Shown here in pieces: positions 2,068-51,408 of a stretch of DNA of 64,000 nucleotides. The stretch lies in NCBI GenBank assembly GCA_965198225.1, contig CBDAOY010000009.1, positions 768,001-832,000 on the forward strand, written 5' to 3'. The translations under genes and the position numbers were made by a program. The DNA is from Terriglobia bacterium. GTDB taxonomy: Bacteria; Acidobacteriota; Terriglobia; 20CM-2-55-15. Position 1 is the first letter of the stretch. Each line of letters starts with the position of its first letter. The notes below the pieces were generated by a model. That model did not search any database. It saw only the letters and a list, made by a program, of their open reading frames with translations, and was not told the DNA's origin.

Positions 2068-2177
2068 AACCCACTTGGACGTATCGTCGCCAAACCGGTA
2101 ATGTGCATCGCGGTCGAAAGCTCGCGATTCTCGACGGTTCCACTTTTCCGTATCAGCGGCACATCCACGCGCGGATT
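2068..2177. repeat. Inverted pair of palindromic spacer sites
   Basis: 2068-2109 aacccacttggacgtat-cgtcgcc-aaaccggtaatgtgcat (+); 2138-2177 reads ...gccgct-gatacggaaaagtggaa on the minus strand; followed by GATTGACC. Confidence 0.65.
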
Positions 2178-2227
2178 GACCCGGGCATTTGAACAACAGT
2201 CAATGGCCTTCAGGGGTGTGCAGTGAA

Positions 2228-4672
2228 TCAGCGCAAACGATCGGCGATTCCCTCCACGGTTCCAGAAAGTGCTAGAAACCTTGCTCGCGTCGCATCACTT
2301 TGACCCGCAACTTCTTCAGAGAGCGTATCGGCCAACGAATCGAGCTGGGTCGCGGCTGACTGGTTGCTGCCACCCCCACCGGAGAGCGTATTGTCGGCAA
2401 GATCAAGTGCCTGCCTCAATGCTCCTGACTGCTCGCTCGAAATGAGGTTGGCACGTTCAAGCTGATCGAGGTAGGCGCGTGCGACCACGGGCTCGGCCGG
2501 CCAGGTGTATCGACGTTGCGTTTGTGCATTGACGATGGCATCCGGATCCTGGAACGAGGCCGCGGCTATCTCATCTGCGCTCAGATACTCACTGGGCAGC
2601 AGGGATAATACATCGAGGCCGCGTGCTATTTCAGTTCCATAGATGAGACCACCGAACCAGTATGCGGACCAGTATCCACCCATGACCAGTTCCTCGCCAT
2701 CAATGGGACCGCGGTCAAAGAAGGCAATTTCGACGGGGTTTGAAGAGTCCGTAAAATCTATAACCGAGATGCCTCCCTGGTACCAGGCCTGAACGAAGAT
2801 GTCCCGACCGGGAACAGGTATGAGCGAGCCATTGTGGGCCACGCAGTTTTCCTGCTCCGATTGCGGCGCAGACATCTTGTAATGGCTCCGAAACTGGAGT
2901 TTGCCGTCAACGATGTCGTAGATGGCATCCGCGCCCCAGTCCTGGGGATCAGAGGCACGGCAACGCGGCCGGCCGCCACCGCCCCATTCATCGGTGAAAA
3001 GCACCTTGGTCCCATCATTGTTGAAAGTCGCCGAGTGCCAGTATGCGAATCCTGGGTCAATGACCTGATCCAGACGGACTGGATTGACCGGATCGCTGAT
3101 ATCGAGAAGGATCCCGTTACCAGCGCAGGCTCCGGCAGCCAGTCCGATTTCAGGGTAGGTCGTGATGTCGTGGCACTGGTTGGTCAGCCTCGTAGTCTGG
3201 GTGCCCTCACCGTGATCACCACCTTCCCACAGACCTGCGATGACCCCGGACTCCGGGTCCGAGAAGATGCGGGGACGGTTGACGATGCGCGCCTCTTCGG
3301 GCCGCGCCAGAGGAATCTGGATCACGTCGATACTGAACAGAGCCGTTTCGGAATCCTCAAATGGTGATTCGTCTGAACAACCCTCAAGCTCTTCACCGGA
3401 ACGAACCGAACCGGTGCCCGACGCGTAGACATAGATGCTTCCATCATTGTCAGGATCAGTCACGATGGTATGGGTATGCGATCCTCTGCAGGTTTGCACA
3501 GCCCCGACCTGCCTGGGTGCTCGAAAGTCACTGATGTCGAAGATCCGGATTCCCCGGAATCGATCAGCGCTCTCCGGTTCGGCGACGCCCTGCAGGCCAC
3601 AGTCAAGCCGCCCCCGTGTTTGCTCGACAGAAAAGATGAGGAGATTTCCGACGACCGACACATCACCCTGTCCACCAGGGCATACAACAGAACTCACCAG
3701 TTCAGGCAAGCCGGGCACCCCGATGTTATAGGCGTTGAAACCGTGATAGTTCCCTGCAACAAGCACATCGCCTGCAAAGGCCATGTCACTGTTGCCAAAA
3801 TTAAGAATGCTGGGCCGCAGCTCCTGGGCTCCACCAGCTTCCGCATCCTCTGCGCTCGATGTTTCGGCTCCCGGTTCCGGCCTGTTCAATGGCAGCCCGC
3901 CGGGATTCGAGGGATCGAAGAATCCGTCCGGTTTGGAAAGAGCAGAAACAAGTTCCATATTCATTAGAGCCTGGCCAGCATCCTCAAAACCTGCGCTCAG
4001 GTTGACTCTCGGGTCGGGAGAAAATCCAGTCAGCATGGAGAGCATGCGATCGATTTCACTGGTCTGATCCGATGTGATGTCTGCGGTAAAGGCAAAGAGC
4101 ACCGAATCCTGGGCCGACCCAGATTGATCCAGAAGATTCTCGACCATGGTCAGGGCGCCTTCATGATGCATGATCATCAGCTCAAGAAACAGGGAGTCAA
4201 ATTCGGATCCGTCGCTCTGCTCAAGTTGTTCCAGCTCGTCAACGCTCAACATGCCTGGCATCAAACGAAATCCCGGAGCAAGGTGCTCATCTACGGCGGT
4301 TACGTGGAGATTCCGATCACCCAGCCAGCCCTGCATCATGGCTATTTCGTCTTCCTGCGAAAGAGTGATGCGCTGAGACAGGAGCTCCATCGCTTCGCGG
4401 TTGGTCCTGGAATCGACAAACACCGTCATCTCCAGAGCCTGTGCATGATGGGAGATCATCCCTTGCATGAAGCGTACGTCGGCCTCGGTAAACTCGATGC
4501 TGGCGAGATCGGATGCCTCCGCCACAGAAATCTCCCGGCTTGGCTGCCCCGGAATGCCAGGCTGAATGATTGGTGCCTGTGCCATGCTTCCAGTAACCCC
4601 CAACAGAATCAGGGCAACAATGCCTACCGTGTACGTGCTCAGACGAGGGACGAATGACGAGGACTTGGTCAT
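2228..4672 (-). CDS. Secreted DUF305 (ferritin-like) plus LVIVD-repeat beta-propeller protein
   Basis: Signal peptide; FMQGMISHHAQAL and MIMHHEGAL (DUF305); CPGGQGDVSV, QTCRGSHTHT and CVAHNGS in the LVIVD region; start moved to the ATG with a GGAGA RBS. Confidence 0.85.
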   Translation of the reverse strand: MTKSSSFVPRLSTYTVGIVALILLGVTGSMAQAPIIQPGIPGQPSREISVAEASDLASIEFTEADVRFMQGMISHHAQALEMTVFVDSRTNREAMELLSQRITLSQEDEIAMMQGWLGDRNLHVTAVDEHLAPGFRLMPGMLSVDELEQLEQSDGSEFDSLFLELMIMHHEGALTMVENLLDQSGSAQDSVLFAFTADITSDQTSEIDRMLSMLTGFSPDPRVNLSAGFEDAGQALMNMELVSALSKPDGFFDPSNPGGLPLNRPEPGAETSSAEDAEAGGAQELRPSILNFGNSDMAFAGDVLVAGNYHGFNAYNIGVPGLPELVSSVVCPGGQGDVSVVGNLLIFSVEQTRGRLDCGLQGVAEPESADRFRGIRIFDISDFRAPRQVGAVQTCRGSHTHTIVTDPDNDGSIYVYASGTGSVRSGEELEGCSDESPFEDSETALFSIDVIQIPLARPEEARIVNRPRIFSDPESGVIAGLWEGGDHGEGTQTTRLTNQCHDITTYPEIGLAAGACAGNGILLDISDPVNPVRLDQVIDPGFAYWHSATFNNDGTKVLFTDEWGGGGRPRCRASDPQDWGADAIYDIVDGKLQFRSHYKMSAPQSEQENCVAHNGSLIPVPGRDIFVQAWYQGGISVIDFTDSSNPVEIAFFDRGPIDGEELVMGGYWSAYWFGGLIYGTEIARGLDVLSLLPSEYLSADEIAAASFQDPDAIVNAQTQRRYTWPAEPVVARAYLDQLERANLISSEQSGALRQALDLADNTLSGGGGSNQSAATQLDSLADTLSEEVAGQSDATRARFLALSGTVEGIADRLR

Positions 4673-4859
4673 GATTATCTCTCCAGCAGAAGTATTCATT
4701 GCGAACTTGCTACAAGACCGGCTGGGCCTTCGGTTTTTAATTTCAAAAAGAATAAAAGAGATTTAGAGTTCATGCCACCCTGTAATACCTGAAGTTCTCC
4801 CTTATCTCATTGCGACGCACAACGCCGGCGGCGAACGTGACCGTATTCGAAGGGGGCGC

Positions 4860-5020
4860 GCAACATCTCTGTGTCGACTGGGAAGCCTTCCGTCGAACGA
4901 AAAAACGCCATTCATCAAGGATCACGACTCTCGCACGAATTCCACGGACGGCAGCCGGGCGGCACGGATAGATAGCCAAGACCGCGTTGTTTTGAAGTGT
5001 CAGCGTAGCTTTCAACCTAG
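4860..5020 (-). pseudogene. Fragment resembling a phage terminase large-subunit ATPase (Walker B region)
   Basis: TLTLQNNAVLAIYPCRPAAVRGIRARVVILDEW resembles the terminase RG...hhhDE motif; no complete gene. Confidence 0.5.
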
Positions 5021-5125
5021 GAGCCCATACAGGGCAGAGAGAAACACCAGCCACAGTCGCCACGTGCTCAAGTCACGGAAGGTAGGCAATGCGCCCAGGG
5101 CGCGATCGTTTCGCCAGACTGTTTC

Positions 5126-5275
5126 AATCCGCTCGGACGTATGGTCGCCATCACGTACATGTGAAAAAGACCGGCCATAGCCTCGGTCCGACTACAGGCA
5201 GATGGAAGAGTACGCGGTTACCCAGGATGTGACCTTCTGATTGACCTCAAGTTGCTAACGTAGTTTTATTTACGG
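5126..5275 (+). promoter_or_regulatory. Kinase upstream spacer module (palindromic site plus TGATTGACC promoter-like motif)
   Basis: aatccgctcggacgtat-ggtcgcc-atcacgtacatgtgaaa at 5126-5166; gatgtgaccttctgattgacctcaa...cgtagttttatt directly before the GTG start. Confidence 0.65.
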
Positions 5276-7972
5276 GTGATCCAACCCGGCCAGAACCTCG
5301 CACACTACGAAATACTCTCCCCGCTCGGCAAAGGCGGCATGGGGGAGGTGTGGAAGGCCAAGGACACAAAACTCGGACGTGAGGTCGCCATAAAGACGCT
5401 CCCCGAAGAGTTCGCCAAAGACGAAGAACGACTGGCCCGGTCTGAACGGGAGGCCAAGCTCCTGGCGTCGTTGAACCATCCCAACATCGCTGCGATCTAC
5501 GGTTTGGAAGAAGACAACGGCACCCGTTTCCTCGTCCTCGAACTGGTTGACGGAGACACGTTGGCGGAGCGATTGAAACGCGGTGCCATCCCAGTCGAAG
5601 AGTCGCTCAAACTCGGACTTCAAATCGCAGAAGCACTCGAAGCAGCACATGAAAAGGGCGTCATCCATCGTGATCTAAAACCGGCAAATATCAAGGTCAC
5701 ACCCGAGGGCAAGCTGAAGGTGCTGGACTTCGGGTTGGCGAAGGTGTTTGCGGAGGGCCAGGCTGATTTGAACCTGTCTCAGTCACCGACGTTGAGCATG
5801 GCCGTGACACAGCAAGGTGTGATCCTGGGGACAGCGGCGTACATGAGTCCCGAACAGGCACGGGGCAAGACTGTGGACACACGTGCGGACATCTGGGCCT
5901 TCGGGTGCGTGCTTTATGAGATGCTCACCGGCCGCCAGACGTGGGGCGGCGAAACCTTGACAGATATGATTGCTGCCGCCGTCGCGAAGGATCCCAACTG
6001 GAACGTTCTCCCTGTGGATCTCCATGCAAGAGTTCAAGAGCTACTCCGACGCTGTCTGGAGAAGGAAGCGAAGAACCGGTGGCAGGCTTCCGGGGATGTG
6101 CGGATTGAGATTGAACAGTTGTTGAGCAATCCAAACGGTCTGTTGGTGCAGCCGATTGCTCAAGTTGTCGAGGCAGCACTCCCGTCGAAACTGCCGTGGG
6201 TCGCGGCTGCAGTCGCCACGGTCGCCGCAATCGTGTTCGGTATTGCTTTGTGGCTTCCGTCGCAGCCGGAAGACCTACCGCTTGTGCGTCTGGATGTCGA
6301 CCTGGGGCAGGAGGTTTCACTGGGTGCAATCAACGGCCGCAGCGTCATCATGACTCCTGACGGGACGCGTATCGCGTATGTGGCCAGCGTCTCGGGCGGC
6401 CAGAGGCGGCTCTATACGCGGCGTCTCGATCAAGCCGACCCGACCGAACTCTCTGGAACCGACAGCGCCACCCTACCCTTCTTTTCTCCCGACGGAAAGT
6501 GGATTGGGTTCTTTGCCTCAGGCACGCTTAACAAGATTTCGGTGGAAGGCGGCGCGGTCGTTCCCCTGCGCGACGGGCCGTTTGCTGGAGGGAGCTGGGG
6601 AGAGGACGGAATCATCGTCTTCAGCCAGCCGCTCCCCGGGGGTCTCATGGCGATTCCCGAGGACGGGGGCGATGTCACGAGTCTGACGCCTCTGGATCAG
6701 GGAGAATTGGCCTTCGCCGAGCCGCAGATCCTGCCGGGTGGCCAGGCCGTATTGTTCTCGACCGCGGGATTCTCAGGCGGCGACCGCAATGTCGAGATCT
6801 TCTCTTTCGCTGACGGGGTTCGCAAGACCCTCGTCCGGGGAGCGACGAGCCCGGCGTATCTTCCCAGCGGCCATCTGGTGTACAACAGCGGCGGTACGCT
6901 GTTTGCCACACTGTTTGATCTGGACGCTCTGGAGACTCTTGGCTCCAGAGTGCCGGTTCTTGGTGACTTGGGAACTGATCCAAGCGGCGATACCTCGATG
7001 ACTTTCTCTCGAGACGGCGCCGTTGTGTACCGGAGCGGTGGTGAAGCGGCGGCGAAGTTCGCTCAGAGTACAGTCGAATGGCTCGACAGTGAAGGCAACC
7101 GCGACCCCCTGATCTCGACCGCCGGCGGATATCTGACCCCGCGGCTCTCACCGGACGCCGAGCAGGTGGTACTGACAACCATCGAAGGAAGCGACGTACG
7201 CGTATCGGTCTACGACCTCGAACGCGACAATATGACGCGATTGACGTTTGACGACGGCTTTTATTCCTCGCCCGTCTGGAGCCCCGACCAGCAAAACGTT
7301 GTTTTTGGGGCGATGGGAGTCGGTCTCCTCCAGGCGCGGGTGGACGGAGCCGGCCCACCCCAGCCGCTGTTGGAAACAAACGTAGCATTACTCCCGTTTT
7401 CATTCGCCCCTGACCAGCGACTGGCATATTTCGAGGCAGGTGAAGGAGGAGGCGACATTCGAACCGTAGCCGTGGAGGACAACGGCAATCGGTTGACGGC
7501 GGGTGAGCCCGAGGCGTTTCTAGCCACCCCTTTTAACGAGGCTCCAAACAGGTTTTCCCCCGACGGGCGGTGGCTGGCGTATCAATCGAACGAGTCGGGC
7601 CAGAACGAAGTGAGTGTGCGAGCCTTTCCGCCGCCGTCTTCGGGGGAAGGCGCTCGGTTTCCGATCTCTAACGGCGGTGGGTACTTTGCGGTATGGTCGC
7701 CCAACTCTCCTGAACTCTTCTACCGTTCCCTTGAAGACCAGATCATGGTCGTCGACTGGCGGGTGGAGGGCGACCGGTTCATCGCCGACCGGCCCCGCGT
7801 GTGGGCGGCAGACCCCGGCGGGCAGTTCTGGGACATGGCCCCGGACGGACGGGCATTGCTGACGGTCCGCGTAGAAACGGACGAAGCACAGGAAGAACCC
7901 GAGGCGGACCATCACGTCGTGTTCTTGGGGAACTTCTTCGACTATCTTCGCCGCGAAGTGCCGGTGCCTTAG
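5276..7972 (+). CDS. Receptor-type Ser/Thr protein kinase with TM and TolB-like (PD40) beta-propeller (kinase 1)
   Basis: GKGGMG, VAIK, HRDLKPAN, DFG, YMSPE; TM WVAAAVATVAAIVFGIALW; repeated FSPDG/WSPD motifs. Confidence 0.95.
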   Translation: MIQPGQNLAHYEILSPLGKGGMGEVWKAKDTKLGREVAIKTLPEEFAKDEERLARSEREAKLLASLNHPNIAAIYGLEEDNGTRFLVLELVDGDTLAERLKRGAIPVEESLKLGLQIAEALEAAHEKGVIHRDLKPANIKVTPEGKLKVLDFGLAKVFAEGQADLNLSQSPTLSMAVTQQGVILGTAAYMSPEQARGKTVDTRADIWAFGCVLYEMLTGRQTWGGETLTDMIAAAVAKDPNWNVLPVDLHARVQELLRRCLEKEAKNRWQASGDVRIEIEQLLSNPNGLLVQPIAQVVEAALPSKLPWVAAAVATVAAIVFGIALWLPSQPEDLPLVRLDVDLGQEVSLGAINGRSVIMTPDGTRIAYVASVSGGQRRLYTRRLDQADPTELSGTDSATLPFFSPDGKWIGFFASGTLNKISVEGGAVVPLRDGPFAGGSWGEDGIIVFSQPLPGGLMAIPEDGGDVTSLTPLDQGELAFAEPQILPGGQAVLFSTAGFSGGDRNVEIFSFADGVRKTLVRGATSPAYLPSGHLVYNSGGTLFATLFDLDALETLGSRVPVLGDLGTDPSGDTSMTFSRDGAVVYRSGGEAAAKFAQSTVEWLDSEGNRDPLISTAGGYLTPRLSPDAEQVVLTTIEGSDVRVSVYDLERDNMTRLTFDDGFYSSPVWSPDQQNVVFGAMGVGLLQARVDGAGPPQPLLETNVALLPFSFAPDQRLAYFEAGEGGGDIRTVAVEDNGNRLTAGEPEAFLATPFNEAPNRFSPDGRWLAYQSNESGQNEVSVRAFPPPSSGEGARFPISNGGGYFAVWSPNSPELFYRSLEDQIMVVDWRVEGDRFIADRPRVWAADPGGQFWDMAPDGRALLTVRVETDEAQEEPEADHHVVFLGNFFDYLRREVPVP

Positions 7973-8380
7973 GCTCTCCGTCTCGCTGGCCGAACTCCGA
8001 GCACGGTTGTAGGAATTCCACTTGGCCGTATGGTCGTTAGCGTTCATCGGAAGTGCCGCGGCGAGCGCGGCCACAGGATGAGCGAGAAGTTCCCACCGCG
8101 GCAGTTTCGATAACAAGACTTGAAGGAGGGCGCTGGCCGAATGCGGCGGACGCGGTGGGCTATGGAGAAAGTAGCCGGAAGCGGGCCGGATCTGGAGTGG
8201 CGTTGGGGCGAGGAGGGGGACCGGCGGTCGATGACCGCGTCGATGGTGTGAATCGGAAAGCAGTTGGGTCGGGGAATCGGTGGGTTGAAAGGACGGGATC
8301 TGAGGGGATTTTGCAGCGGAGGCACACTCCGGCGAGGACGTGGCTGAACCGCACGTCGGTCGTCGGTTTGTGAAGGAGGA

Positions 8381-9550: not shown

Positions 9551-10437
9551 TCGCCTTTCTTCTTTCTCAGACGGGGAGACGGTCCCAGATCGGGAACCGG
9601 AAGAGAATCGATCGGGTTCACCACGCGCTGCATGTGCGCCTGAGACAAATGGAGATAGAGGGTCGTCGCTTCCAGATCGACATGACCCAACAGGAGCTGG
9701 ATGGTTCGCAGGTCGGTTCCCCTCTCCAGCAGGTGGGTGGCCCAGCTGTGGCGCAGCGTATGTGGGGATACTTTCTTTTTGATGCCGGCACGTTGGGCGG
9801 CTTGTTGGACGGCGTACCAAACCGTCTTCACATCGATGGGCTGTCCGGGCCGGGTCCGGAGCAAACTGGGGAAGAGGTACTCGCCGGGTTTCCGCCAACG
9901 CCAGTAGTCGCGCAGGACTTCCAGCAGTTTCGGTGACAGCGGCACGTCGCGGTCGCGATTGCCTTTACCCTGCCTCACATGGATCACCATGCGTTCGCTA
10001 TCGACGTCCTCGACCTTCAGACGACACAGCTCGGCCCGCCGCAGTCCCGTCGAATACAAGGTCATCAGGATGACGAAGTGATAGGCACTGTTGGCGGAGG
10101 CCAGCAGTTGCGCCACTTCCTCTTCGCTCAGAATCGTGGGCAACCGGGACGGCTGTTTCGGATAGACCAGATCGACCTGGTGATAGGGACGGCGAAGCAC
10201 CTTCACGTAGAAGAACCGGAGTGCGGCGATCCGTCCGATGATGGTGTCGACAGCGAGCTTGCGCTCCTGAAGCAGATGCAGCTGGTACTGCCGCATCTGT
10301 TCCTGTTCGAGCTTGTCGGGGGACTTCCCGAAGTAGCGGGCGAAGTCTTCGACCGCGTGAAGATACAGCCGAATCGTAGCGGGTGAGTAGTTCCGGCGCT
10401 GGAGTTCCTCCAGCATCCGTTGTCGCAGCTTCGTCAT
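9547..10437 (-). CDS. Tyrosine recombinase/integrase
   Basis: SAM-like N-terminus; GLRRAE, HTLRHSWATH, LLGH and TTLY catalytic motifs; GGAGG RBS. Confidence 0.95.
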   Translation of the reverse strand: MTKLRQRMLEELQRRNYSPATIRLYLHAVEDFARYFGKSPDKLEQEQMRQYQLHLLQERKLAVDTIIGRIAALRFFYVKVLRRPYHQVDLVYPKQPSRLPTILSEEEVAQLLASANSAYHFVILMTLYSTGLRRAELCRLKVEDVDSERMVIHVRQGKGNRDRDVPLSPKLLEVLRDYWRWRKPGEYLFPSLLRTRPGQPIDVKTVWYAVQQAAQRAGIKKKVSPHTLRHSWATHLLERGTDLRTIQLLLGHVDLEATTLYLHLSQAHMQRVVNPIDSLPVPDLGPSPRLRKKKGE

Positions 10438-10620
10438 GTGAGCCTCCTTGTGAGGCTCACACTCTATCGGGGGCTCATCACTCTTCGCTCAGCACACGCG
10501 TAGCGTCCGCCGCGCCAGCGGCTTCGTTCAAGTCGCCGATACGGAAAAGTGAATCGACCACGGCAAGATCGAGACGCTAGCGATACGCTTCTCGCCGATG
10601 TCTGATCGCAACAAGTGGGT

Positions 10621-10770
10621 CATCCACATTCCCTATCGTCGATACTTCCATGTAGATCTCGTCGAAAAGCCCCGTCTTACCTCGGTTTTTCCACTCTTCC
10701 GACCAGGCGGTGATACATCCATGTGACTGTTTGATTGCTACCAACCCCTTCCTGCCGTAGTATTTACGCA
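10621..10770 (+). promoter_or_regulatory. Spacer module: inverted palindrome pair plus promoter of kinase 2
   Basis: catccacattccctatcgtcgatacttccatgtagat (10621-10657); inverted copy at 10689-10727; TTGCTA-17 bp-TAGTAT. Confidence 0.6.
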
Positions 10771-19149: not shown

Positions 19150-19517
19150 TCTCGTTCGCTCCTCAAACGGAGGCTGCAATCGGTTGTCGTTTCCCTGTCT
19201 TTCGTGCAGGGCTGGGACCGCGGTTCGAATACGCGCTTACTGGAAACCTGACGGCCCAGGGTCTGGAGCCCGGCAGGTGTCACGATCATCGATCCAATCC
19301 TGATGTACGACGACGATGTCACTCCCCGGCTTCAGAATCCAGCGGAAAACCGCCGGCCCGAGGGTCCGGTTGACAGTATTCGTACTGGAACTTCATTTTG
19401 GGAGGCGAGGGATCCTACTGTGTGTCAGGTGTCCGGTTACCTGGCCTTACAACCGAGTGGTTGCCTGATGTGCCATTCTGATTGACCTCAAATCCCGCCT
19501 GTCGTTTCATTCATCCA

Positions 19518-20994: not shown

Positions 20995-21042
20995 TTAATA
21001 AGGTTAGGAAGGCCTATCCAGGCACCGGAGGGGTAAATAACC

Positions 21043-21076
21043 GAAAGAACTGAAGGAACGGTCGCCGGTGCCGTAG
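21043..21076 (+). pseudogene. Kinase 3'-tail remnant
   Basis: gaaagaactgaaggaacggtcgccggtgccgtag versus kinase 3 end gaagaactgaaggaacgggtgccggtgccttaa. Confidence 0.8.
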
Positions 21077-21167
21077 CCTTCGCTGAGCGACCTTCCAACC
21101 ACCGCAACTCTCTTCCGACTACAGGAATCAGCAGTCCTCGACAATCCACGGGGATGTATGGCCGCCG

Positions 21168-21785
21168 ACACTCCAAGCTCGGACGTGAAGTCGCCATCAA
21201 GACCCTCCCCGAGGAGTTTGCCAATGACGGGGAGCGACTGGCCCTCTTTGAGCGTGAAGCGAAGCTACTCGCCTCGTTGAACCATCCGAACATCGCCACG
21301 TTCCACGGTTTGGAAGAAGACAACGGTACCCGGTTTCTCGTCTTGGAACTCGTTGAAGGCGACACGCTGGCGTACAGGCTGAAGCGCGGCGCCATCCCCG
21401 TCGAAGAATCCCTCAAGCTCGCGCTCCAGATCGCCGAAGCGCTCGAAGCCGCTCACGAGAAGGGCATCATCCTCCGGGTCCTGAAACCCGCAAAAATAAA
21501 AGTCACACCCGACGGCAAGCTGAAGGTCCTGGATTTCGGTCTGGCGAAGGCATTTGCGGGGGATGGTTCCGACGTGAACTTGTCGCACTCCCCAACGATT
21601 AGCATGGCGGCGACGCAGCAGGGCACGATTCTCGGAACGGCCGCATACATGTCCCCCGAGCAAGCCAAGGGACGCGAGATCGACAAGAGGACCGACATAT
21701 GGGCCTTTGGCTGCGTGCTCTACGAAATGCTCATAGGCCGATCCGCCTTTGGCGGTGAAGACGTTGCGGATACGCTTGCGTTCGT
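21168..21785 (+). pseudogene. Degenerate kinase catalytic-domain fragment
   Basis: Starts at [10 protein letters not shown] (no P-loop); HRDLKPAN changed to LRVLKPAK; homology ends near EDVADTLA. Confidence 0.88.
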
Positions 21786-22014
21786 GGGGATAAGTAAAAT
21801 AGGAGGGGTTGGCAGTGTAGGGTGTGTGGGAAGCGCAGCCGAGGCCAACCTGGTGCCGGAGGCTCGCGGCCGGGTGGTTTCCCAGCCCGGCATACTGGTT
21901 TCACAGGCGGTTCCAACGCATGGACACGTTGATTTGCACGGGCCAGTACGCTACTTTTGAATGTCGTTTTTTCGATATGGATTACAGAGCGCGATATCAA
22001 AGAAAGACCAACCT

Positions 22015-22829: not shown

Positions 22830-22927
22830 CCACGCCGCGGCCGGACAGCCAGTCAAATCCTTCACTGCAGATCAACGTCGTCTTGAACTGGACGGAAGAA
22901 CTAAAGGAACGGGTGCCGGTGCCCTAT
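22830..22927 (+). pseudogene. Kinase 3'-tail remnant
   Basis: Translates ...QINVVLNWTEELKERVPVP. Confidence 0.9.
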
Positions 22928-25400: not shown

Positions 25401-25629
25401 GTGAGCCTCCTTGTGAGGCTCACACTCTATCGGGGGCTCATCACTCTTCGCTCAGCACACGCGTAGCGTCCGCCGCGCCAGCGGCTTCGTTCAAGTCGCC
25501 TATGCTCCCATGTGGATCTTGCCAGAAAGGCCCCGTTTCAGGCGCTTCGCAGGTTTCTCCGTATCGGCGGCGTTACAGGATATTGCCTTCCTGATTGACC
25601 CCAAGTCCGTTCCGTAGTCTGATCTAGGC

Positions 25630-25719
25630 GTGATCCAACCCGGTTCAGCGCTCGCGCACTATGAAGTCGTTTCTGCCCTCGGCAAGGGCGGCATGGGCGA
25701 GGTGTAGAAAGCCCGGGAA
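25630..25719 (+). pseudogene. Kinase 5'-head remnant with nonsense codon
   Basis: [28 protein letters not shown] (TGG->TAG), preceded by ctgattgacc...cgtagtct. Confidence 0.9.
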
Positions 25720-29214: not shown

Positions 29215-29257
29215 GCTGGACTCAAAAGTCGCGGCATGATTCCAGTGAATCAACATT

Positions 29258-29290
29258 GAAGCACTGAAGGAACGGGTGCCGGTGCCATGA
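29258..29290 (+). pseudogene. Kinase 3'-tail remnant
   Basis: EALKERVPVP* (gaagcactgaaggaacgggtgccggtgccatga). Confidence 0.85.
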
Positions 29291-29351
29291 CCTGTGAGAC
29301 TCCCCCAAAAATCTCCTCAGCGGTGTTTCTGAGAATCCACATCCCCGAGAA

Positions 29352-37382: not shown

Positions 37383-37438
37383 GCGGTCACGGCGCACGCG
37401 ACTCGTGACACTTTCTACTTGGTTCGCCTAAGAGGTCT

Positions 37439-37530
37439 GAAGAACTGAAGTAACGGGTGCCAGCACCGTACTGTGGCCCGGATTTGCAATTCTCAACTCC
37501 CACTAAGTCGCCTACACGGAAACGTGGAAT
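37439..37530 (+). pseudogene. Kinase 3'-tail remnant plus unoccupied palindromic site
   Basis: EELK*RVPAP; next bases match the region after kinase 3 (ggcccggat.tgca..c.caactccc); then aagtcgcctacacggaaacgtggaat. Confidence 0.8.
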
Positions 37531-41860: not shown

Positions 41861-41865
41861 GGCCC

Positions 41866-43817: not shown

Positions 43818-44285
43818 CTCGGGCTGCTATAGAAAGGTGTGCGTGAAAACGAGCGATACCGAATCTGCGGAATCGCCGAGAATCTCGAAGCGCTCGTATT
43901 CGAGGCTGTCCTGGCGAATTGCTAATTGGCCTCGCAATCCGTTGAAAGATATCCGATCTTCTGATTGCGGTAGAGACAGCTTCAATTGTCCGAATCGCGT
44001 GCTTGGGAATACTTCCGTTTACTCCAAATAAGCGACGTACTCCGCCCCGAATCCCTTCCCTACGTCCGACACCCCTTGAACGAAATCAACGACTTGGACC
44101 ATGGGCCGGGAGCCCTTTAGGTGACGGCCATTCCGCTAAGCTGGACGTCGATCATCCAGAGGGTTGATGGAGATTTCGGCGGGCAGCCACCGCCGCATGA
44201 AACGAGGGCAGATCTCCGAGTATGCGGTTTACCAGGACTTGAGCTTCTGATTGACGCCAACTCCCTCCTGTAGTCTTATTTAGGC

Positions 44286-46991
44286 GTGATCGAGCCCGGC
44301 TCAAGACTTGCACACTACGAAGTCGTTTCCGCCCTTGGCAAGGGCGGCATGGGCGAGGTGTGGCGTGCGCGTGACACAAAATTGCGGCGCGATGTTGCGA
44401 TCAAGGTCCTGCCGGACGCGGTCGCACGGGAACCCGAGCACCTGTCCCGCTTCCGGCGTGAAGCACGAGCCTTGGCCGCGCTGAATCATCCGAACATTTC
44501 GGCCATCTACGGTCTGGAAGAACACGATCAGATTCATTTCCTCGTCCTGGAACTGGTTGAAGGCGACACCCTCTCGGACCTGCTCGCGGGCGGCCCCTTT
44601 CCGATTACTGAATCCCTTCGTATCGGTGCCCAAATCGCCGAGGCCCTCGGAGCGGCCCACGACAAAGGGATCGTGCACCGGGACCTGAAGCCGGCGAACA
44701 TCAAAGTCACACCTGACGGTCAGGTCAAGGTCCTCGACTTTGGGCTGGCAAAGGCGTTTTCCGGCGAGGGCGACGCCGACCTGTCGTGGGCTTTAACCAT
44801 CACGGAAACCGTCGAAAGCCGGAAAGGGAGGTTGGTCGGAACGCCAGCCTACATGAGCCCTGAACAGGCGCAAGGTCAGCAGATCGACAAGCGAACTGAC
44901 ACCTGGGCTTTCGGCTGTGTGCTCTTCGAGATGCTGGTTGGCAAGCGCCCATTTGCAGGAATTACCCTGTCCGACACGATCGCCCGAGTACTGGAGCGGG
45001 ACCCTGACTGGGATGCGTTGCCCAAGGGAACGCCAGCGAGGATGCGTGATCTGCTGGAACGTTGCCTGGAAAAGGATGCTCGAAACCGGCAACGGGATTT
45101 TGGGGATGTGCGGATCGAGATCGAGCGCGCTCTGTCGGAGACGGTGATCCCGTCACACGAAGTTTCCTCGGCATCGGGACTGCCATTGAACCGGGTGATC
45201 TCAGCCGTGGTTGTCGTTGGATTGATAAGCGTCGCGACCGGCCTCATCATCTGGAATTCCGGGTCGCCGGGGTTGGAGACGGTTTCCGGACCACCCCGAC
45301 TGGAGAACATCGAACGCCTCACCAGTCTGCCGGGAAACGAAAGCCAACCGGCCTGGTCTCCAGATGCGCAATTCGTAGCTTTTACTTCAGGAACATCCGG
45401 AAACAGAGACATCTGGATCAAGGCGGTCAGCGGAGGTGAACCGATCCAACTGACCCACCATGAGGCTGATGACTACACTCCGGACTGGTCGCCTGACGGA
45501 AAGCAGATCGTATTCCGTTCGAACCGTACAAATGGTGGGCTGTACACAATAGATGCTTTTGGGGGCGATGCGCGGCGCATTGCCGATTTCGGCTACCGGC
45601 CCCGTTGGTCACCGGACGGTCGGCAGGTTGTCTTTCAGCTGCGAGGCGGAACCCTGATACCCAACGAGATCTATGTCTTGGATTATCCGCCCGACGAACC
45701 GCCTCAGAAGTTACTGGCATGGGAAGACGGTCAAGATCCATATACCAACGCCGACTGGTCGCCCGACGGCGAGTATCTCGTTTACCGAACCGGCCAATAT
45801 GTGGCCGGGCCAGGTGTTGCCATCGCGGCCGTAGAGAATCCCAGCGATCAGTTCTTCCTGGAAGTTGACGGCGAGAAACTTAGGTTCGCGCAACCAGTTT
45901 GGGCCAGGGACGGCAGAGGAATCATTGGTGTGCGCAGTTCCGGTCGGACTGGTGGCGCCTTGTGGTACGCCGGGCTGGACCAAAATCGCCGAGCCACTTC
46001 AATTTCGCGGTTGACCACCGGGGTGGGGGATGGCAACCCCGATGTTACACGGGATGGAAAGCGGCTCGCATACACAACCGCTGCCGGCCACTTTGACATT
46101 TGGAAAGTAGAGCTGGATCTCAGATCGGGTCAGCCTGCCGGAGATCCGAAGCCGTTGATCGGGAGCCCGTCAAACGATGAGTTCCCGGCCATTCTCCCTG
46201 ACGACCGCCACGTACTCTTCATTTCGGATCGGGCCAACGAGCGGCATCTATACGTTTCCGATCCCGAAGGTGGCGACGTCCGCCTGGTCGACAACAGCCG
46301 AGACTGGGGGCGCATCCCTTCGGTTTCGCCCGACGGCAGATGGGTCGCCTTGCAGGTTGGACCGCCTACTGAAACCTATCTGATTCCGTTCGATCCGGTA
46401 ACCCAGCAGGCCTTAGGTTCGCCTAGAAGTGTCGGCGTACAGGCCGCGTCCAACTGGTCGCCGGATGGGAAGTACCTTTTGTTTACAGGTTCCGATGTGC
46501 TTGGATCTGGGGGAATCGATGTGCTGGACCTGTCTGGCAGTGAAGCGAAGAAAGTCTTCTGGCCTTTCAGTGCTGGCTTCCTGGAGAAGTATCCGAGGAA
46601 GATCATTGGCTATTTCTCCCGCGACGGTAACTGGATCGCGTTCGGCGCGTACAAAGAGCGCGACAAACCCGCAATCTTCGTTGTCAGACCCGGGTCGACC
46701 GAGCCGCACTTGATCTGGGAAGGGGCCGCAAACCCGATGTGGGGGCCAACCATGGAAAAGATCTATATGTGGTCGGAGCGTCCGGATGAAACTCAGGGCA
46801 GACTGGGCTTTGTTGTATTCGATACAGAGACAGGGGCACCGACGAGCGACTTCCAGCCTTTGAACCTGGAACAAAGTGCACGATCGGGCTACAGTGCGGC
46901 GTCGATAAGCAGTGATGGAAAGTGGTTAGTCTATTTCTCCGAAACGGTCGAAGGCGACATCTATGTTGCCGATCTCGTGCCCTCAAGTTGA
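44286..46991 (+). CDS. Receptor-type Ser/Thr kinase with TM and PD40 repeats (kinase 4)
   Basis: Full kinase motifs, TM, many WSPDG repeats; preceded by the same ttctgattgacgccaa...tagtcttatt motif. Confidence 0.95.
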   Translation: MIEPGSRLAHYEVVSALGKGGMGEVWRARDTKLRRDVAIKVLPDAVAREPEHLSRFRREARALAALNHPNISAIYGLEEHDQIHFLVLELVEGDTLSDLLAGGPFPITESLRIGAQIAEALGAAHDKGIVHRDLKPANIKVTPDGQVKVLDFGLAKAFSGEGDADLSWALTITETVESRKGRLVGTPAYMSPEQAQGQQIDKRTDTWAFGCVLFEMLVGKRPFAGITLSDTIARVLERDPDWDALPKGTPARMRDLLERCLEKDARNRQRDFGDVRIEIERALSETVIPSHEVSSASGLPLNRVISAVVVVGLISVATGLIIWNSGSPGLETVSGPPRLENIERLTSLPGNESQPAWSPDAQFVAFTSGTSGNRDIWIKAVSGGEPIQLTHHEADDYTPDWSPDGKQIVFRSNRTNGGLYTIDAFGGDARRIADFGYRPRWSPDGRQVVFQLRGGTLIPNEIYVLDYPPDEPPQKLLAWEDGQDPYTNADWSPDGEYLVYRTGQYVAGPGVAIAAVENPSDQFFLEVDGEKLRFAQPVWARDGRGIIGVRSSGRTGGALWYAGLDQNRRATSISRLTTGVGDGNPDVTRDGKRLAYTTAAGHFDIWKVELDLRSGQPAGDPKPLIGSPSNDEFPAILPDDRHVLFISDRANERHLYVSDPEGGDVRLVDNSRDWGRIPSVSPDGRWVALQVGPPTETYLIPFDPVTQQALGSPRSVGVQAASNWSPDGKYLLFTGSDVLGSGGIDVLDLSGSEAKKVFWPFSAGFLEKYPRKIIGYFSRDGNWIAFGAYKERDKPAIFVVRPGSTEPHLIWEGAANPMWGPTMEKIYMWSERPDETQGRLGFVVFDTETGAPTSDFQPLNLEQSARSGYSAASISSDGKWLVYFSETVEGDIYVADLVPSS

Positions 46992-47452
46992 GGTTACAGG
47001 GATAGTGATGTGCTGTGCCGGCTCTGCGACTTCCGTCACCAGAAGAAAGAGTACAAATGATCCGAACCAGAGGTCTGCCATCGCGAGCTTCAGATGCCCG
47101 TATAGTCGTTAGCGTTCATCGGAAGTGCCGCGGCGAGCGCGGCCACAGGATGAGCGAGAAGTTCCCACCGCGGCAGTTTCGATAACAAGACTTGAAGGAG
47201 GGCGCTGGCCGAATGCGGCGGACGCGGTGGGCTATGGAGAAAGTAGCCGGAAGCGGGCCGGATCTGGAGTGGCGTTGGGGCGAGGAGGGGGACCGGCGGT
47301 CGATGACCGCGTCGATGGTGTGAATCGGAAAGCAGTTGGGTCGGGGAATCGGTGGGTTGAAAGGACGGGATCTGAGGGGATTTTGCAGCGGAGGCACACT
47401 CCGGCGAGGACGTGGCTGAACCGCACGTCGGTCGTCGGTTTGTGAAGGAGGA

Positions 47453-48622
47453 TTAGGACGTATCGCATTGGAAGGCGAGCCTCGCTACGAGTTGCAGAGC
47501 GGTGAAGCGTTGGATGAGAGTCATCGGTCCCTGACAGTGCGGACACGACCAGGAAGAGTTCGAGGTGGTGGTTTCGTCAGATTCGACCCTCGGCATGGCA
47601 TCGAGGAGTTGGCGACAGAGAGCGAAGGCGGCCGACCGGCGGTAGTTGGCCATGAATCCGAAGTGTCGGATGCGGACGAAGCCCTTCGGCAGAACGTGCA
47701 ATAAGAACCGTCGGATGAACTCGTCGGCCGCGAGTGTCATGATGCGACTCTTGTTGCCATTGCGGTAATCCCGCCAACGGAACCGGACCCGGTTACCGTC
47801 AAACGAGATCAATCGATGGTTGGAGATGGCGACCCGATGGGTGTAGCGGCCCAGGTAGCGGAGCACCTGTTCGGGGCCACCAAAGGGTCGTTTGATATAG
47901 ACGACCCAGTTGCGGGAATGGATCTGGCGGCGGAACCGCCGAAAGTGTTGCGGTTCGCCGAAGGGTCGAATCGAGCCGGACAGTTCGAGCGAACCGTCGG
48001 CGATCGCTCGCCCGAGCCCGTCGATGAACTTGCCACGGAAGACTCGGGCGAGCACCTGCTTGGGGAGGAAGAAGCGCCCAGAACCCGGAATCCAACGGGA
48101 CTGATCCGGAGCCAGTCCGCCGGCCGGTACCACGCAGTGGATGTGGGGATGGAACTCCAGGTTCTGACTCCAGGTATGCAGGATGCCGAAGAAGCCGATC
48201 CGGGCGCCGAGTCGTTTCGGATTGGCCGCCACCTCGATCATCGTGTCGGCCACGCTGCGAAACAGCAGGCTGTAGAGTAGGGCAGGGTTGTGGAAGAAGA
48301 ACGGATGGAACTGGTGCGGGACGGTGAACACGACGTGGAAGTAGGGGGTGGGCAGCAGTTCGGCTTCTCGTGCTTCGAGCCACCGTCGTCGGGCCTGGGT
48401 CTGACACTTCGGGCAGTGGCGGTTGCGGCAGGAGTTGAACGAGATTCCGGACTCCCGGCCACAATCGGCACACCGGTCGATGTGGCCACCCAGAGCCGCA
48501 GTACGACAGTTCAGGATGGCGCGCAGGACCTTGAGCTTCTGGATGCCGAGGCGGTGACGCTGGAGGAAACCTCGAACCCGGGCGCGGACGATGTCGGCCA
48601 CCTCGACGGCGGGCCGGCTCAT
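47453..48622 (-). CDS. IS91 family transposase
   Basis: Translation identical to copy 1. Confidence 0.93.
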   Translation of the reverse strand: MSRPAVEVADIVRARVRGFLQRHRLGIQKLKVLRAILNCRTAALGGHIDRCADCGRESGISFNSCRNRHCPKCQTQARRRWLEAREAELLPTPYFHVVFTVPHQFHPFFFHNPALLYSLLFRSVADTMIEVAANPKRLGARIGFFGILHTWSQNLEFHPHIHCVVPAGGLAPDQSRWIPGSGRFFLPKQVLARVFRGKFIDGLGRAIADGSLELSGSIRPFGEPQHFRRFRRQIHSRNWVVYIKRPFGGPEQVLRYLGRYTHRVAISNHRLISFDGNRVRFRWRDYRNGNKSRIMTLAADEFIRRFLLHVLPKGFVRIRHFGFMANYRRSAAFALCRQLLDAMPRVESDETTTSNSSWSCPHCQGPMTLIQRFTALQLVARLAFQCDTS

Positions 48623-49509
48623 TCGCCTTTCTTCTTTCTCAGACGGGGAGACGGTCCCAGATCGGGAACCGGAAGAGAATCGATCGGGTTCACCACGCGC
48701 TGCATGTGCGCCTGAGACAAATGGAGATAGAGGGTCGTCGCTTCCAGATCGACATGACCCAACAGGAGCTGGATGGTTCGCAGGTCGGTTCCCCTCTCCA
48801 GCAGGTGGGTGGCCCAGCTGTGGCGCAGCGTATGTGGGGATACTTTCTTTTTGATGCCGGCACGTTGGGCGGCTTGTTGGACGGCGTACCAAACCGTCTT
48901 CACATCGATGGGCTGTCCGGGCCGGGTCCGGAGCAAACTGGGGAAGAGGTACTCGCCGGGTTTCCGCCAACGCCAGTAGTCGCGCAGGACTTCCAGCAGT
49001 TTCGGTGACAGCGGCACGTCGCGGTCGCGATTGCCTTTACCCTGCCTCACATGGATCACCATGCGTTCGCTATCGACGTCCTCGACCTTCAGACGACACA
49101 GCTCGGCCCGCCGCAGTCCCGTCGAATACAAGGTCATCAGGATGACGAAGTGATAGGCACTGTTGGCGGAGGCCAGCAGTTGCGCCACTTCCTCTTCGCT
49201 CAGAATCGTGGGCAACCGGGACGGCTGTTTCGGATAGACCAGATCGACCTGGTGATAGGGACGGCGAAGCACCTTCACGTAGAAGAACCGGAGTGCGGCG
49301 ATCCGTCCGATGATGGTGTCGACAGCGAGCTTGCGCTCCTGAAGCAGATGCAGCTGGTACTGCCGCATCTGTTCCTGTTCGAGCTTGTCGGGGGACTTCC
49401 CGAAGTAGCGGGCGAAGTCTTCGACCGCGTGAAGATACAGCCGAATCGTAGCGGGTGAGTAGTTCCGGCGCTGGAGTTCCTCCAGCATCCGTTGTCGCAG
49501 CTTCGTCAT
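48619..49509 (-). CDS. Tyrosine recombinase/integrase
   Basis: Translation identical to copy 1. Confidence 0.95.
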   Translation of the reverse strand: MTKLRQRMLEELQRRNYSPATIRLYLHAVEDFARYFGKSPDKLEQEQMRQYQLHLLQERKLAVDTIIGRIAALRFFYVKVLRRPYHQVDLVYPKQPSRLPTILSEEEVAQLLASANSAYHFVILMTLYSTGLRRAELCRLKVEDVDSERMVIHVRQGKGNRDRDVPLSPKLLEVLRDYWRWRKPGEYLFPSLLRTRPGQPIDVKTVWYAVQQAAQRAGIKKKVSPHTLRHSWATHLLERGTDLRTIQLLLGHVDLEATTLYLHLSQAHMQRVVNPIDSLPVPDLGPSPRLRKKKGE

Positions 49510-49824
49510 GTGAGCCTCCTTGTGAGGCTCACACTCTATCGGGGGCTCATCACTCTTCGCTCAGCACACGCGTAGCGTCCGCCGCGCCAGCGGCTTCGTT
49601 CAAGTCGCCTATGCTCCCATGTGGATCTTGCCAGAAAGGCCCCATTTCAGGCGGTTTCCAGTTTTCCGTATCGGAGGTCTATGAGGACCTGCTTCTGTTG
49701 TTGCTTCCAAACTTCCCACCTAGATAGACTTACCAGAATTTCGTAACCGGGTAAGACGCCTCGCGACCTAGGATCACACTGGAGGTCCGGCCGGAAAAGG
49801 TCGAGGGCCGGCGCATAAGGCACC

Positions 49825-50130
49825 ATGGAAAGCAAAGCTTCAGGCGATCGGATCGCCGTCAAGTTCAAGCGAAAGATCGACCTGCCATACGAGGAAGGAG
49901 CGGAACGGGCTTTTGCCGGCGCCGAGCGGCAGTGGTGGGATGAACTTGTGAGAGAGGTCGGCGCGATCCGGTTGGAGCCGCTTTTCGACATCAGGCGTGA
50001 AGCGGTCGACGCGCTGCTCGAGCTTCCGAGGACGACCTCAAAAAGTTCGTCGGCGCGACCAACAACCTGGCCACACGCCAGATCGGCTGGCTGATCTGGT
50101 ACTGGCCGCCATTCCGTCTTCTGAAGACGC
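49825..50130 (+). pseudogene. Gene fragment, possibly the N-terminal (pro)domain of a larger protein
   Basis: Protein-like IAVKFKRKIDLPYEEGAE...LEPLFD, with an apparent frameshift; family uncertain. Confidence 0.3.
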
Positions 50131-50259
50131 TCCTGTACCGGCTCACAGGGTACACGCTCAGGAAACGGTGATTCTCGTCATACCAGGTTGCGTGATATGC
50201 CTGCTTGATGTGTTCCCTGCGAGACAGGGTCTGTCAATTTCGAACTAAGGGAGAGATCA

Positions 50260-51180
50260 ATGGAACCAAAGAAGACGAAGATTCCCGCGGAAGCGGTAGA
50301 ACTGTACACCCAATACATTCACGGTGAGGTCAGTCGTCGTGACTTTTTCGCCGGAGTGAAGCGTTTCGCCGTCGGTGGTTTTACTGCCGCGGCGATCGTC
50401 GAAGCGTTGATGCCGAACTACGCGCTGGGGCAGCAGGTTCCCAAGGAGGACGAGCGGATCAGAGCGAGCTATGAGACCTTGCCCTCACCGGATGGAAATG
50501 GGTACATCCGGGGCTATCTCGTCCGACCGTTCAGCGCCGATTCACGCAGCGAGACCCCATCGCAACTGCCCGGAGTTCTCGTCGTGCACGAGAATCGGGG
50601 ACTGAATCCGCATACCGAGGACGTGGCACGGCGCTTCGCCCTGGAGAACTTCATGGCATTCGCGCCGGACGCGCTGACGACAGTCGGTGGTTATCCAAGC
50701 GACGACTACAGAGGCGGCCAGCTATTTCGCACGATCGATCGCGCCAAAATGACCCATGATTTCGTCGCCGCCGCGCAGTGGTTGAAATCACGTCCGGACT
50801 GCACGGGCAGAATCGGCGTAACGGGTTTTTGCTTCGGCGGTGGTATGTCCAATACCCTGGCTGGTCTGCTGGGGGCGGATCTGGCAGCGGCCGCTCCGTT
50901 TTATGGCGGCGGAGCCGCGCCGGAGGACGTGCCGAATATCAGCGCGGCAATGCTCATCCATCACGGCGCGCTCGATACACGCCTGGTCAACGCATATCCC
51001 GCGTACGAGGCAGAATTGCAGAAGAACAACGTCACCTACGAAGGCCACATTTATCCGAATTCTGTCCATGGTTTCTTCAATGACGCCACGCCGGAACGCT
51101 ACAACAAGGCCGCGGCGGAGCAGGCATGGACGCGCACCATTGAGTGGTTCAACCAATACGTGCGGGAAGCCTCGGCCTAA
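50260..51180 (+). CDS. Dienelactone hydrolase family protein (YghX-like)
   Basis: SRRDFF, VHENRGLNPH, GFCFGG nucleophile motif, HGFFND. Confidence 0.92.
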   Translation: MEPKKTKIPAEAVELYTQYIHGEVSRRDFFAGVKRFAVGGFTAAAIVEALMPNYALGQQVPKEDERIRASYETLPSPDGNGYIRGYLVRPFSADSRSETPSQLPGVLVVHENRGLNPHTEDVARRFALENFMAFAPDALTTVGGYPSDDYRGGQLFRTIDRAKMTHDFVAAAQWLKSRPDCTGRIGVTGFCFGGGMSNTLAGLLGADLAAAAPFYGGGAAPEDVPNISAAMLIHHGALDTRLVNAYPAYEAELQKNNVTYEGHIYPNSVHGFFNDATPERYNKAAAEQAWTRTIEWFNQYVREASA

Positions 51181-51368
51181 GCCAGGAGGGCGCGGAAACT
51201 TGCCTGGATGTTACGGGTGCCGAGTCCGGTGCCCGGCGTCATTTGGCCGTCGACTTCGGAACCACTCGACCCCTGCGGGCCATCGGTGTTCCACTCGGCA
51301 GCATGTGGTAAATCTGTCGCTCAACAGCCCTCCGACCACCAAACCATCCGATTCGCCAGGCGGGCTGG

Positions 51369-51408
51369 AATCCATATGCCTGTAGAATCGCCTACACGGA
51401 GAGTGGAT
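51369..51408 (+). repeat. Palindromic spacer site (unoccupied)
   Basis: aatccatatgcctgtag-aatcgc-ctacacggagagtggat. Confidence 0.65.

Follow-up and report, generated by a model that had tools for sequence, protein, structure and literature searches.

A palindromic intergenic repeat that probably serves an IS91-family element as landing site and surrogate terminus in Terriglobia

The 64,000-nt window analyzed here is the region C9:768001–832000 of the genome of a Terriglobia bacterium (G000; 6.4 Mb in 9 contigs, roughly 60% GC, 97% complete), and window positions carry the prefix w. A family of short imperfect palindromes was found in the window, and a 2.5-kb insertion sequence (IS) of the IS91 family interrupted the palindromes at four places. 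The family is probably a low-copy intergenic repeat resembling the repetitive extragenic palindromes (REPs) and bacterial interspersed mosaic elements (BIMEs), without a REP-associated tyrosine transposase (RAYT), that serves ISs as a landing pad and surrogate terminus. The repeat family was common to several genera of this acidobacterial lineage.

In the proposed mechanism, the asymmetric core of the palindrome would be the point at which mobile elements dock, nick and join DNA. The IS91-family element, which has an HUH-Y2 transposase and a XerA-like recombinase, inserts just 3' of the core tetranucleotide GTCG in a single orientation; the transposase would nick 3' of GTCG, and the recombinase might assist in the choice of target. 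When the element's own terminus is read through, the transfer would run on to the following palindrome, halt at its GTCG and carry the host flank along. In a sister species, this core is also used by an unrelated element of the IS110 family. As an outcome, the cores would mark rearrangement junctions with reassorted left and right halves, while a putative host role may keep the palindrome sequence conserved.

Identification and distribution of the palindrome family

An nhmmer profile was iterated from the window copies and run on the whole genome, with a covariance model (CM) alongside, and the reversed genome was used as the decoy for the same profile. The non-overlapping sites numbered 20, 28, and 32 at E ≤ 0.01, 0.1, and 1, respectively. 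At E ≤ 0.1, the real genome gave 29 raw nhmmer matches and the decoy gave none, and the CM recovered the same set of sites as nhmmer. The genome thus held about 42 sites, namely 32 intact copies and 10 copies split by the IS.

The alignment of 27 intact copies gave the dyad-symmetric consensus AATCCACnTGnCTGTAnAGTCGCCnACACGGAAAnGTGGAT of about 41 nt (in short form, ATCCAC..T...CGTA..GTCGCC..AC.CGG..A..GTGGAT). An earlier annotation of the window, made from the sequence alone (hereafter the initial annotation), had reported essentially the same consensus as an imperfect palindrome with inverted arms around an asymmetric core. Both features were in agreement with the present result. The in-register pairing was 55.2%, compared with 32–40% when the partner column was slid by 1–3, and the arrangement ..CCGTATn-GTCGCC-nATACGG.. 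corresponded to the layout of tyrosine-recombinase core sites, with inverted arms of 11–13 nt and an asymmetric spacer of 6–8 nt. A simple pattern built from the inner arms matched 1 site, with 1.28 matches expected at random, the arms being too degenerate for a search of this kind.

Two core types were distinguished. Among the 26 intact sites at E ≤ 0.1, the core tetranucleotide was GTCG in 17, ATCG in 3, and (A/G)CCG in 6, the last being the second type. Copies in opposite orientation formed (+)/(−) doublets at w2067/2135, w10621/10686, w25495/25546, and w49604/49653. All matches at E ≤ 0.1 fell in six islands on the contigs C4, C6, C7, and C9, which together covered 204 kb. The uniform genome-wide spread that the initial annotation had associated with REPs was therefore not seen, and the copies were clustered.

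The repeat was also searched for in a sample of 59 other genomes. At E ≤ 0.01, it was present in 18 of them: all three of the same genus, 13 of the 33 of the same family, and both representatives of another family. The 18 included two without the IS, and the best copies came from genomes other than G000. In an alignment of copies from seven other genomes with four copies of G000, the 3' end of the (kinase) gene and the palindrome were conserved across genera, and the spacer of 27–95 nt between them and the downstream flank were not. A conserved palindrome between an unconserved spacer and flank indicates a discrete unit that is constrained or re-inserted. Furthermore, the genome G048 carried near-identical copies in doublets, the second core type included. 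Their neighbors were unrelated genes, namely an MFS transporter, an aldo-keto reductase, a PSD1/DUF1501 pair, and a sigma-70 gene with a copy after it. No match to the IS91 transposase or to the Y1 transposase (PF01797) was found in G048.

The IS91-family element and its target

The genome contained 10 copies of the IS with 98.9–100% identity, of which 7 were full, 1 was interrupted, 1 was rearranged, and 1 was truncated. Five of them lay within C9:764–818 kb. In the copy at C6:342005–348807, about 4.3 kb of other DNA separated positions 2430 and 2431 of the IS. In the window, the IS was read on the minus strand, with a tyrosine-recombinase gene first and the gene of an IS91-family transposase (HUH-Y2 with a zinc domain) behind it. 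The transposase matched PF04986, PF14319, and NF033538 (431 bits against a cut-off of 125), and the recombinase matched PF00589 and the XerA-type model NF040815 (223 bits). The match of the recombinase to the integron-integrase model was limited to two stretches and reached 203 bits against a cut-off of 265. The closest solved structures of the recombinase were XerA 4a8e (2.9e-43) and 5hxy, and a reading of the 4a8e alignment suggests that the catalytic R, K, H-x-x-R, H, and Y are present.

The junctions of the IS were uniform. All 10 left junctions read left half-GTCG|TTAGCG, and all 8 available right junctions read GTTC(A/T)A-GTCG| followed by the right half. The orientation of the IS relative to the asymmetric core was the same in every copy, and all IS-occupied sites had GTCG. 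The flanking palindrome halves varied from one copy to the next around the near-identical ISs, which indicates that the IS entered pre-existing palindromes. Moreover, the ends of the IS were direct repeats (CGTTCA) and not inverted arms, and only GTCG was common to both junctions. The four shared bases and the direct-repeat ends, as read from the sequence, suggest HUH chemistry rather than a crossover by the tyrosine recombinase. The strand with GTCG was the G-rich strand for 9 of the 10 IS copies, a weak GC skew that was confounded by the orientation of the palindromes.

One pair of copies pointed to the read-through of the terminus. The copies at C6:348807 and C9:764324 had in common the IS itself and 518 nt beyond it, a segment that ended with the GTCG of the following palindrome. 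They diverged right after that GTCG, and their left flanks were unrelated. The 518-nt segment contained two more GTCGs that had been skipped, which indicates that the machinery recognizes the palindrome and not the tetranucleotide alone, and that the palindrome can end a transfer.

Insertion sequences and breakpoints in related genomes

The IS91 transposase was found in 18 of the 59 relatives, 10 of which also had the palindrome. All seven genomes of the same family with at least 11 copies had it, these related genomes not being independent of one another. In the genome G002, a lineage whose transposase was 81% identical (2499 nt) showed the same GTCG junctions, with recognizable palindrome halves by eye in 5 of 6 copies. 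At two loci of G002 (L055 and L056), a GTCG-ended remnant of 13–15 nt, made of the first and last bases of the IS, immediately preceded a full copy. This remnant resembles a copy that lost its interior and whose terminal GTCG then served as a target. A further lineage, of about 73% DNA identity, occupied the G002 equivalent of w5217 in a degenerate inverted copy.

Two other lineages at 58–59% identity had a different flanking tetranucleotide and a different target, and were often arranged head to tail. At least 17 copies of these were present in G002, and 24 matches in G015. Head-to-tail tandems with one tetranucleotide between the units were seen at L059, L060, and L065 of G002 and at L073 of G015. 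The target motif of the IS lineages B and C was absent from the window. The motif of lineage B (..AACGCCGCAGTGTTTACC..) occurred about 20 nt upstream of two palindromes (L077, about 7520–7550, and L092; G003), a placement that suggests a mosaic of repeat types, each with its own IS lineage.

The core was also adjoined by an element of another family. In G003, an IS110-family element of 1450 nt (PF02371 and PF01548) adjoined the same GTCG. Four of its seven copies in that genome lay in this palindrome family, one of them against the junction of an IS91 copy.

Breakpoints between the genomes fell at the core as well. Most of the window was a mosaic whose pieces mapped to far-apart places in G002 and G003. 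A block that was 98–99% identical in G000, G002, and G003 began at w2086, the G of GTCG, and had three different left contexts. One left context with its half was joined to the w2086 block in G002 and to another right half in G003. The true orthologues of the sites w2068 and w5126 lay at G002:6.296–6.299 Mb, and two other G002 sites were paralogous.

Conservation of the sequence and points against the proposed reading

Several observations weigh against the reading of the family as a REP-like repeat used by ISs. The copies are not dispersed, being confined to 3.2% of the genome, and in genus g1 many of them lay among arrayed kinase genes, and duplication along with these genes accounts for some of the clustering. 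The number of about 42 copies is far below that usual for REPs, which is given as more than 100 per genome in the part of the source that bears on it (PMC2817692). No RAYT (Y1 transposase, PF01797) was found in G000. In the relatives, Y1 transposases did not track the presence of the repeat; in G012, the C-terminal half of the Y1 transposase model was matched by over 100 near-identical stretches of 180 nt, all of them with stop codons, which look like a proliferated non-autonomous IS200/IS605 derivative.

The hairpin expected of a REP was likewise not supported. In the 27 intact copies, the pairing (55.2%) was compared with that of shuffled columns (57.8 ± 1.4%), and 484 of 500 column shuffles were at least equal. 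The same held for 38 copies including the sites rebuilt across the IS (287 of 466 cells paired against a shuffle mean of 296; 1886 of 2000 shuffles at least equal) and for 36 distinct copies taken from other genomes, where 63.7% of the cells paired and the shuffles gave 65.7% (474 of 500). Compensatory variation was absent in all three sets. The claim of the initial annotation that the arms vary but keep complementarity could thus not be upheld, since the pairing never exceeded that of the column shuffles. In the folding of single-stranded DNA (ssDNA), only 1 of 11 copies of G000 had a z-score below −2. HUH enzymes usually act on single strands. Even so, a hairpin-based mechanism, and with it the earlier proposal of ssDNA hairpin targets, is unsupported because of the missing covariation and the poor folding. 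The symmetric positions were kept in the 36 copies: CAC/GTG in 33–34, the inner G–C pair in all 36, and the core too. The conserved feature is a dyad-symmetric sequence, not a hairpin tolerating compensating changes.

The events at the core were also few. The read-through was a single in-genome event, with one pair showing a one-sided match up to the core. The right ends of the 98–99% block lay off the core, at w5110 in G003 and at w5217 in G002, and not at w5147. The off-core right ends and the single one-sided pair indicate that the reassortment at the cores is real but rare in these data. In addition, an unsplit palindrome of G003, whose right half and downstream sequence matched w10536–10614, had a single GTCG. 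This fits a 4-bp duplication on insertion and, equally, a terminal tetranucleotide owned by the element, as is the case in the IS91 family.

Genomic placement and alternative explanations

With a crude calling of open reading frames (ORFs), 4 of the 32 intact copies lay inside an ORF: three in short ORFs (106–235 aa) and one weak copy (E 0.47) in an ORF of 1509 aa. The remaining copies were intergenic or touched only the end of an ORF, 10 between convergent, 13 between tandem, and 5 between divergent genes. Copies with the GTCG core came after genes, in the orientation of the gene. The (A/G)CCG copies were inverted and lay 30–70 nt further on, just upstream of promoter-like boxes. A coding nature of the repeat was considered, as the flanks repeat too, and was dropped because the copies sit outside long ORFs.

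As the initial annotation had proposed, the palindromes might be true site-specific recombination sites. An Xer-type recombinase, of the IS or of the host, would then act on an 11-6-11 core with the exchange in GTCGCC, and the segments between the sites would be cassette-like. The inner consensus, with inverted arms of about 11 nt and an asymmetric 6-nt spacer, has the layout of dif, for which two 11-bp arms and a 6-bp spacer are given in the relevant part of PMC2958812. The likeness to dif, loxP, and FRT is in architecture only: the present sites occur in many copies per genome and have extra conserved outer boxes (CAC and GTG). The IS recombinase is XerA-like, with its catalytic residues apparently present, and the symmetric positions are conserved without covariation, as for a protein-bound site. 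Parts of the earlier proposal stand. A mobile element with a tyrosine recombinase and an HUH transposase breaks and joins DNA at the core (GTCG| in 10 of 10 cases), and the homology between genomes breaks, and halves are reassorted, exactly there. However, the IS is flanked by only four shared bases, unlike the 6–8 bp overlap of tyrosine recombinases, and its joined ends form no matching inverted-repeat core. Furthermore, the right side of the 98–99% block does not end on a core, and G048 keeps the repeats, though no IS91-type element was found there. The reassortment can be explained without a dedicated recombination system, because IS insertion, read-through, or inter-IS recombination can likewise give rise to each junction that falls precisely on a core. 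No circular or excised forms were seen among the assembled contigs; those from public runs broke at the IS ends, with no bridging of an empty site and no circle junction, and are uninformative either way. We therefore regard recombination sites as unlikely, and the REP-like repeat, which the initial annotation had named as the alternative, fits better.

It is quite unlikely, in our view, that the IS91-type transposase uses the palindromes in place of its own origin and terminus, with the XerA-like recombinase reading the site. If this were true, any host segment between two cores, from a right half to the following left half with its GTCG, could be copied out and re-inserted at another core. 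The result would be gene shuffling of an integron-like kind, driven by a rolling-circle enzyme, and the patchwork of kinase remnants and foreign gene blocks in the islands would be accounted for.

The palindrome could also be a candidate binding site of a host protein (of the operator, nucleoid, or gyrase type) that the ISs exploit. The conservation of a dyad-symmetric sequence without covariation is consistent with this, as is its persistence across genera while the neighboring sequence drifts. In addition, the (−) copies lie directly upstream of promoter-like TTGAC boxes of kinase genes. However, a promoter is not expected in the convergent gaps that hold 10 of the 28 intergenic copies, and the neighbors in G048 are unrelated, with one copy after a sigma-70 gene. 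A role of this kind as the full explanation is considered improbable.

Similarly little weight is given to the possibility that the copies are neutral relics co-duplicated with the expanded kinase-PD40 arrays, whose sequence the IS merely recognizes. A tblastn search with the kinase domain found 91 matching pieces across the genome, many of them in tandem arrays, and 9 of the 42 palindromes had a kinase 3'-end motif within 250 nt upstream (strict nucleotide motif). Conversely, a palindrome came after only 9 of 42 such motifs. The copies of G000 are degenerate and fold poorly, and those of G003 likewise cluster in kinase arrays. This explanation is opposed by the 33 of 42 copies without the upstream kinase motif, by the many kinase clusters without any copy, and by the near-identical copies beside unrelated genes in G048. 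Moreover, the conservation of the palindrome between genera does not extend to the spacer beside it.

Finally, an action in RNA, as a stabilizing 3' hairpin or a terminator, is highly improbable: many copies lie 15–95 nt past a stop codon and face the same way as the gene before them, and one copy each of G048 and G012 folds well (z −3.3 and −2.0, DNA parameters), but there is no covariation, most copies of G000 fold like shuffled sequence, no T run follows the copies, and no Rfam family matched the window at the gathering thresholds.

Copies in the window

The initial annotation had listed about 15 copies in the window. The family proved real, its copies coinciding with the listed positions or lying no more than about 20 nt away, and two of them were borderline. 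Nine intact copies were found at CM E ≤ 1, at w2067(+), w2135(−), w5125(+), w10686(−), w16149(+, weak), w21142(+), w25546(−), w37488(+), and w51368(+). The four IS-split sites were also recovered, with left halves ending at w8036, w22999, w29355, and w47108. The starts of the right halves had to be revised to w10532, w25495, and w49604, in place of 10552, 25517, and 49626. The two borderline copies, at 10621 and 49655, were seen in the first nhmmer pass only.

The first intact palindrome (w2067–2111, plus strand; GTCG at w2086–2089; nhmmer E 2.7e-6; CM 38.1 bits) formed a doublet with a second-type copy on the minus strand (w2135–2176; core GCCG, no GTCG; nhmmer E 0.073; CM E 0.295). The next intact palindrome lay at w5125–5169 on the plus strand (GTCG at w5144–5147; nhmmer E 4.1e-5; CM 34.4 bits). 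The positions of the split halves were taken from the listing of the junctions. The first split site, on the plus strand, had its left half with the GTCG at its end at w8016–8036 and GTCG with the right half at w10532–10556. IS copy 1 (w8037–10535, minus strand; 2495 nt plus the terminal GTCG) was identified with Pfam, NCBIfam, and its blastn copies. Its ORFs, both on the minus strand, encode the transposase (w8381–9898; PF04986, PF14319; NCBIfam transpos_IS91, 431 bits) and the tyrosine recombinase (w9547–10437; PF00589; XerA-type NCBIfam model, 223 bits). It was followed by the borderline degenerate copy at w10621–10661 (plus strand; E 0.91) and by a second-type copy with the core ACCG at w10686–10730 (minus strand; nhmmer E 0.0018), just before the promoter-like TTGAnTGC box that belongs to the kinase gene w10845–13469.

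A weak copy (w16149–16190, plus strand; CM E 0.244) lay 15 nt past the stop codon of the kinase gene w13466–16135, and an intact copy with the core GCCG lay at w21142–21186 (plus strand; nhmmer E 0.0056). IS copy 2 (w23000–25498, minus strand; blastn, 100% identical over 2501 nt) was flanked on the plus strand by the left half at w22979–22999 and by GTCG with the right half at w25495–25520. The second-type copy at w25546–25590 (minus strand; nhmmer E 0.08) preceded a promoter-like box and the 5' remnant of a kinase gene. The site at 29334 had the left half only (w29335–29355, plus strand), because its IS, copy 3 (w29356–30139, minus strand; blastn), was truncated after 784 nt. The intact copy at w37488–37532 (plus strand; nhmmer E 0.0021; CM 31 bits) had a well conserved right half. 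A stretch at w37650–37700, between this palindrome and the next conserved block, resembles a tRNA 3' end by eye, and ARAGORN found no tRNA in the window. The last split site had its left half at w47088–47108 and GTCG with the right half at w49604–49629, both on the plus strand, around IS copy 4 (w47109–49607, minus strand; blastn). A borderline second-type copy at w49653–49691 (minus strand; E 1.4) and an intact copy with the core ATCG at w51368–51411 (plus strand; nhmmer E 1.8e-5; CM 39.5 bits) completed the set.

Neighboring genes and repeats

The genes of the window comprised paralogues of Ser/Thr kinase-PD40 proteins, and PSD/PSCyt proteins. Several segments had the form of kinase-gene shells, consisting of a promoter box with about 90–120 nt of the kinase 5' end and about 35–60 nt of the kinase 3' end (..EELKERVPVP*), with unrelated genes between them. 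These pieces lay at w19467–19634 with 21039–21075, at 25591–25718 with 29253–29289, and at 21154–21960, 22890–22926, and 37434–37470. The 3' remnants in the shells all started within about 20 nt of one point. The contents of the shells included an M19 dipeptidase, ThuA behind a truncated kinase, and a block of a methyltransferase, an NTP-transferase-aminotransferase, and a CDP-alcohol phosphatidyltransferase.

A promoter-like module (..ATGTGAC..TGATTGAC/TTGC..17 nt..TAGTAT/TAGTTT) preceded kinase genes as well as a small ORF (about w1636–1850). Its sites were w5226–5270, 10726–10770, 19467–19511, 25580–25624, 44236–44280, and 1490–1535. In addition, a non-coding repeat of about 275 nt (w39706–39987 and w16331–16611) had dozens of copies with 82–93% identity in G002 and G003. 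The copy at w39706–39987 was missing from the otherwise collinear sequence of G002.

Comparison with known systems and significance

The REPs are established targets of ISs, and IS1397, ISKpn1, IS621, ISPpu9/10, ISPa11, and ISRm22 are among the examples in the relevant part of Tobes and Pareja (2006; PMC1525189). The families given there are IS3, IS110, IS4, IS256, and IS5, with IS91 at 1 of 7 copies in Shigella. The present repeat resembled REPs and BIMEs in being a short, imperfect, intergenic palindrome, in forming doublets of opposite orientation from two unit types, and in its ties to regions that vary between genomes. It was also similar in the position- and orientation-precise insertion of ISs within the palindrome and in the use by more than one IS family. 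It differed in having about 42 copies in 3.2% of the genome and not hundreds spread out, in lacking a RAYT and hairpin covariation, and in its main user, which belongs to the IS91 family.

The element shared with the IS91 family (IS91, IS801, IS1294, and ISCR) the HUH-Y2 transposase with a zinc domain, the lack of long terminal inverted repeats, the orientation-specific insertion by a fixed tetranucleotide that also ends the element, and the read-through of the terminus. The canonical tetranucleotide of IS91 is GTTC/CTTG, whereas that of the present element is GTCG, which was used only inside the 40-nt palindrome. IS91 members with an integrase gene are listed in ISfinder/TnPedia, and pairs of transposase and recombinase genes with 43–49% identity were annotated on rhizobial plasmids. 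According to the part of PMC5714925 on rolling-circle transposons, adjacent DNA is transposed when the termination site is missed.

An identity of the palindromes with integron attC sites was rejected. The attC sites are 57–141 nt long, have R''/R' boxes, and delimit compact promoterless cassettes next to intI. The present sites were 40 nt long and 3–10 kb apart, with multi-gene blocks and promoter-like boxes between them, and the IS entered them in the middle and not at an end box. The only integron-integrase match in G000 (C6:488798–489706, L001; 446.5 bits, above the curated cut-off) had one in-frame TGA. No palindrome copies at E ≤ 0.1 were found within about 120 kb of it, and a repeat scan of the surrounding 40 kb showed no palindrome array and no obvious attC array.

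At the level of titles and abstracts, the literature searched held no report of an IS91-type element targeting such palindromes. With the present element, the IS families homing on intergenic palindromes would number six, and the added family differs from the others in mechanism (HUH rolling-circle). Since the same palindrome can end a rolling-circle transfer, it would offer a concrete route for moving neighboring host genes. The palindromes represent an uncatalogued repeat family without a RAYT, present in several acidobacterial genera and conserved in sequence rather than in structure.

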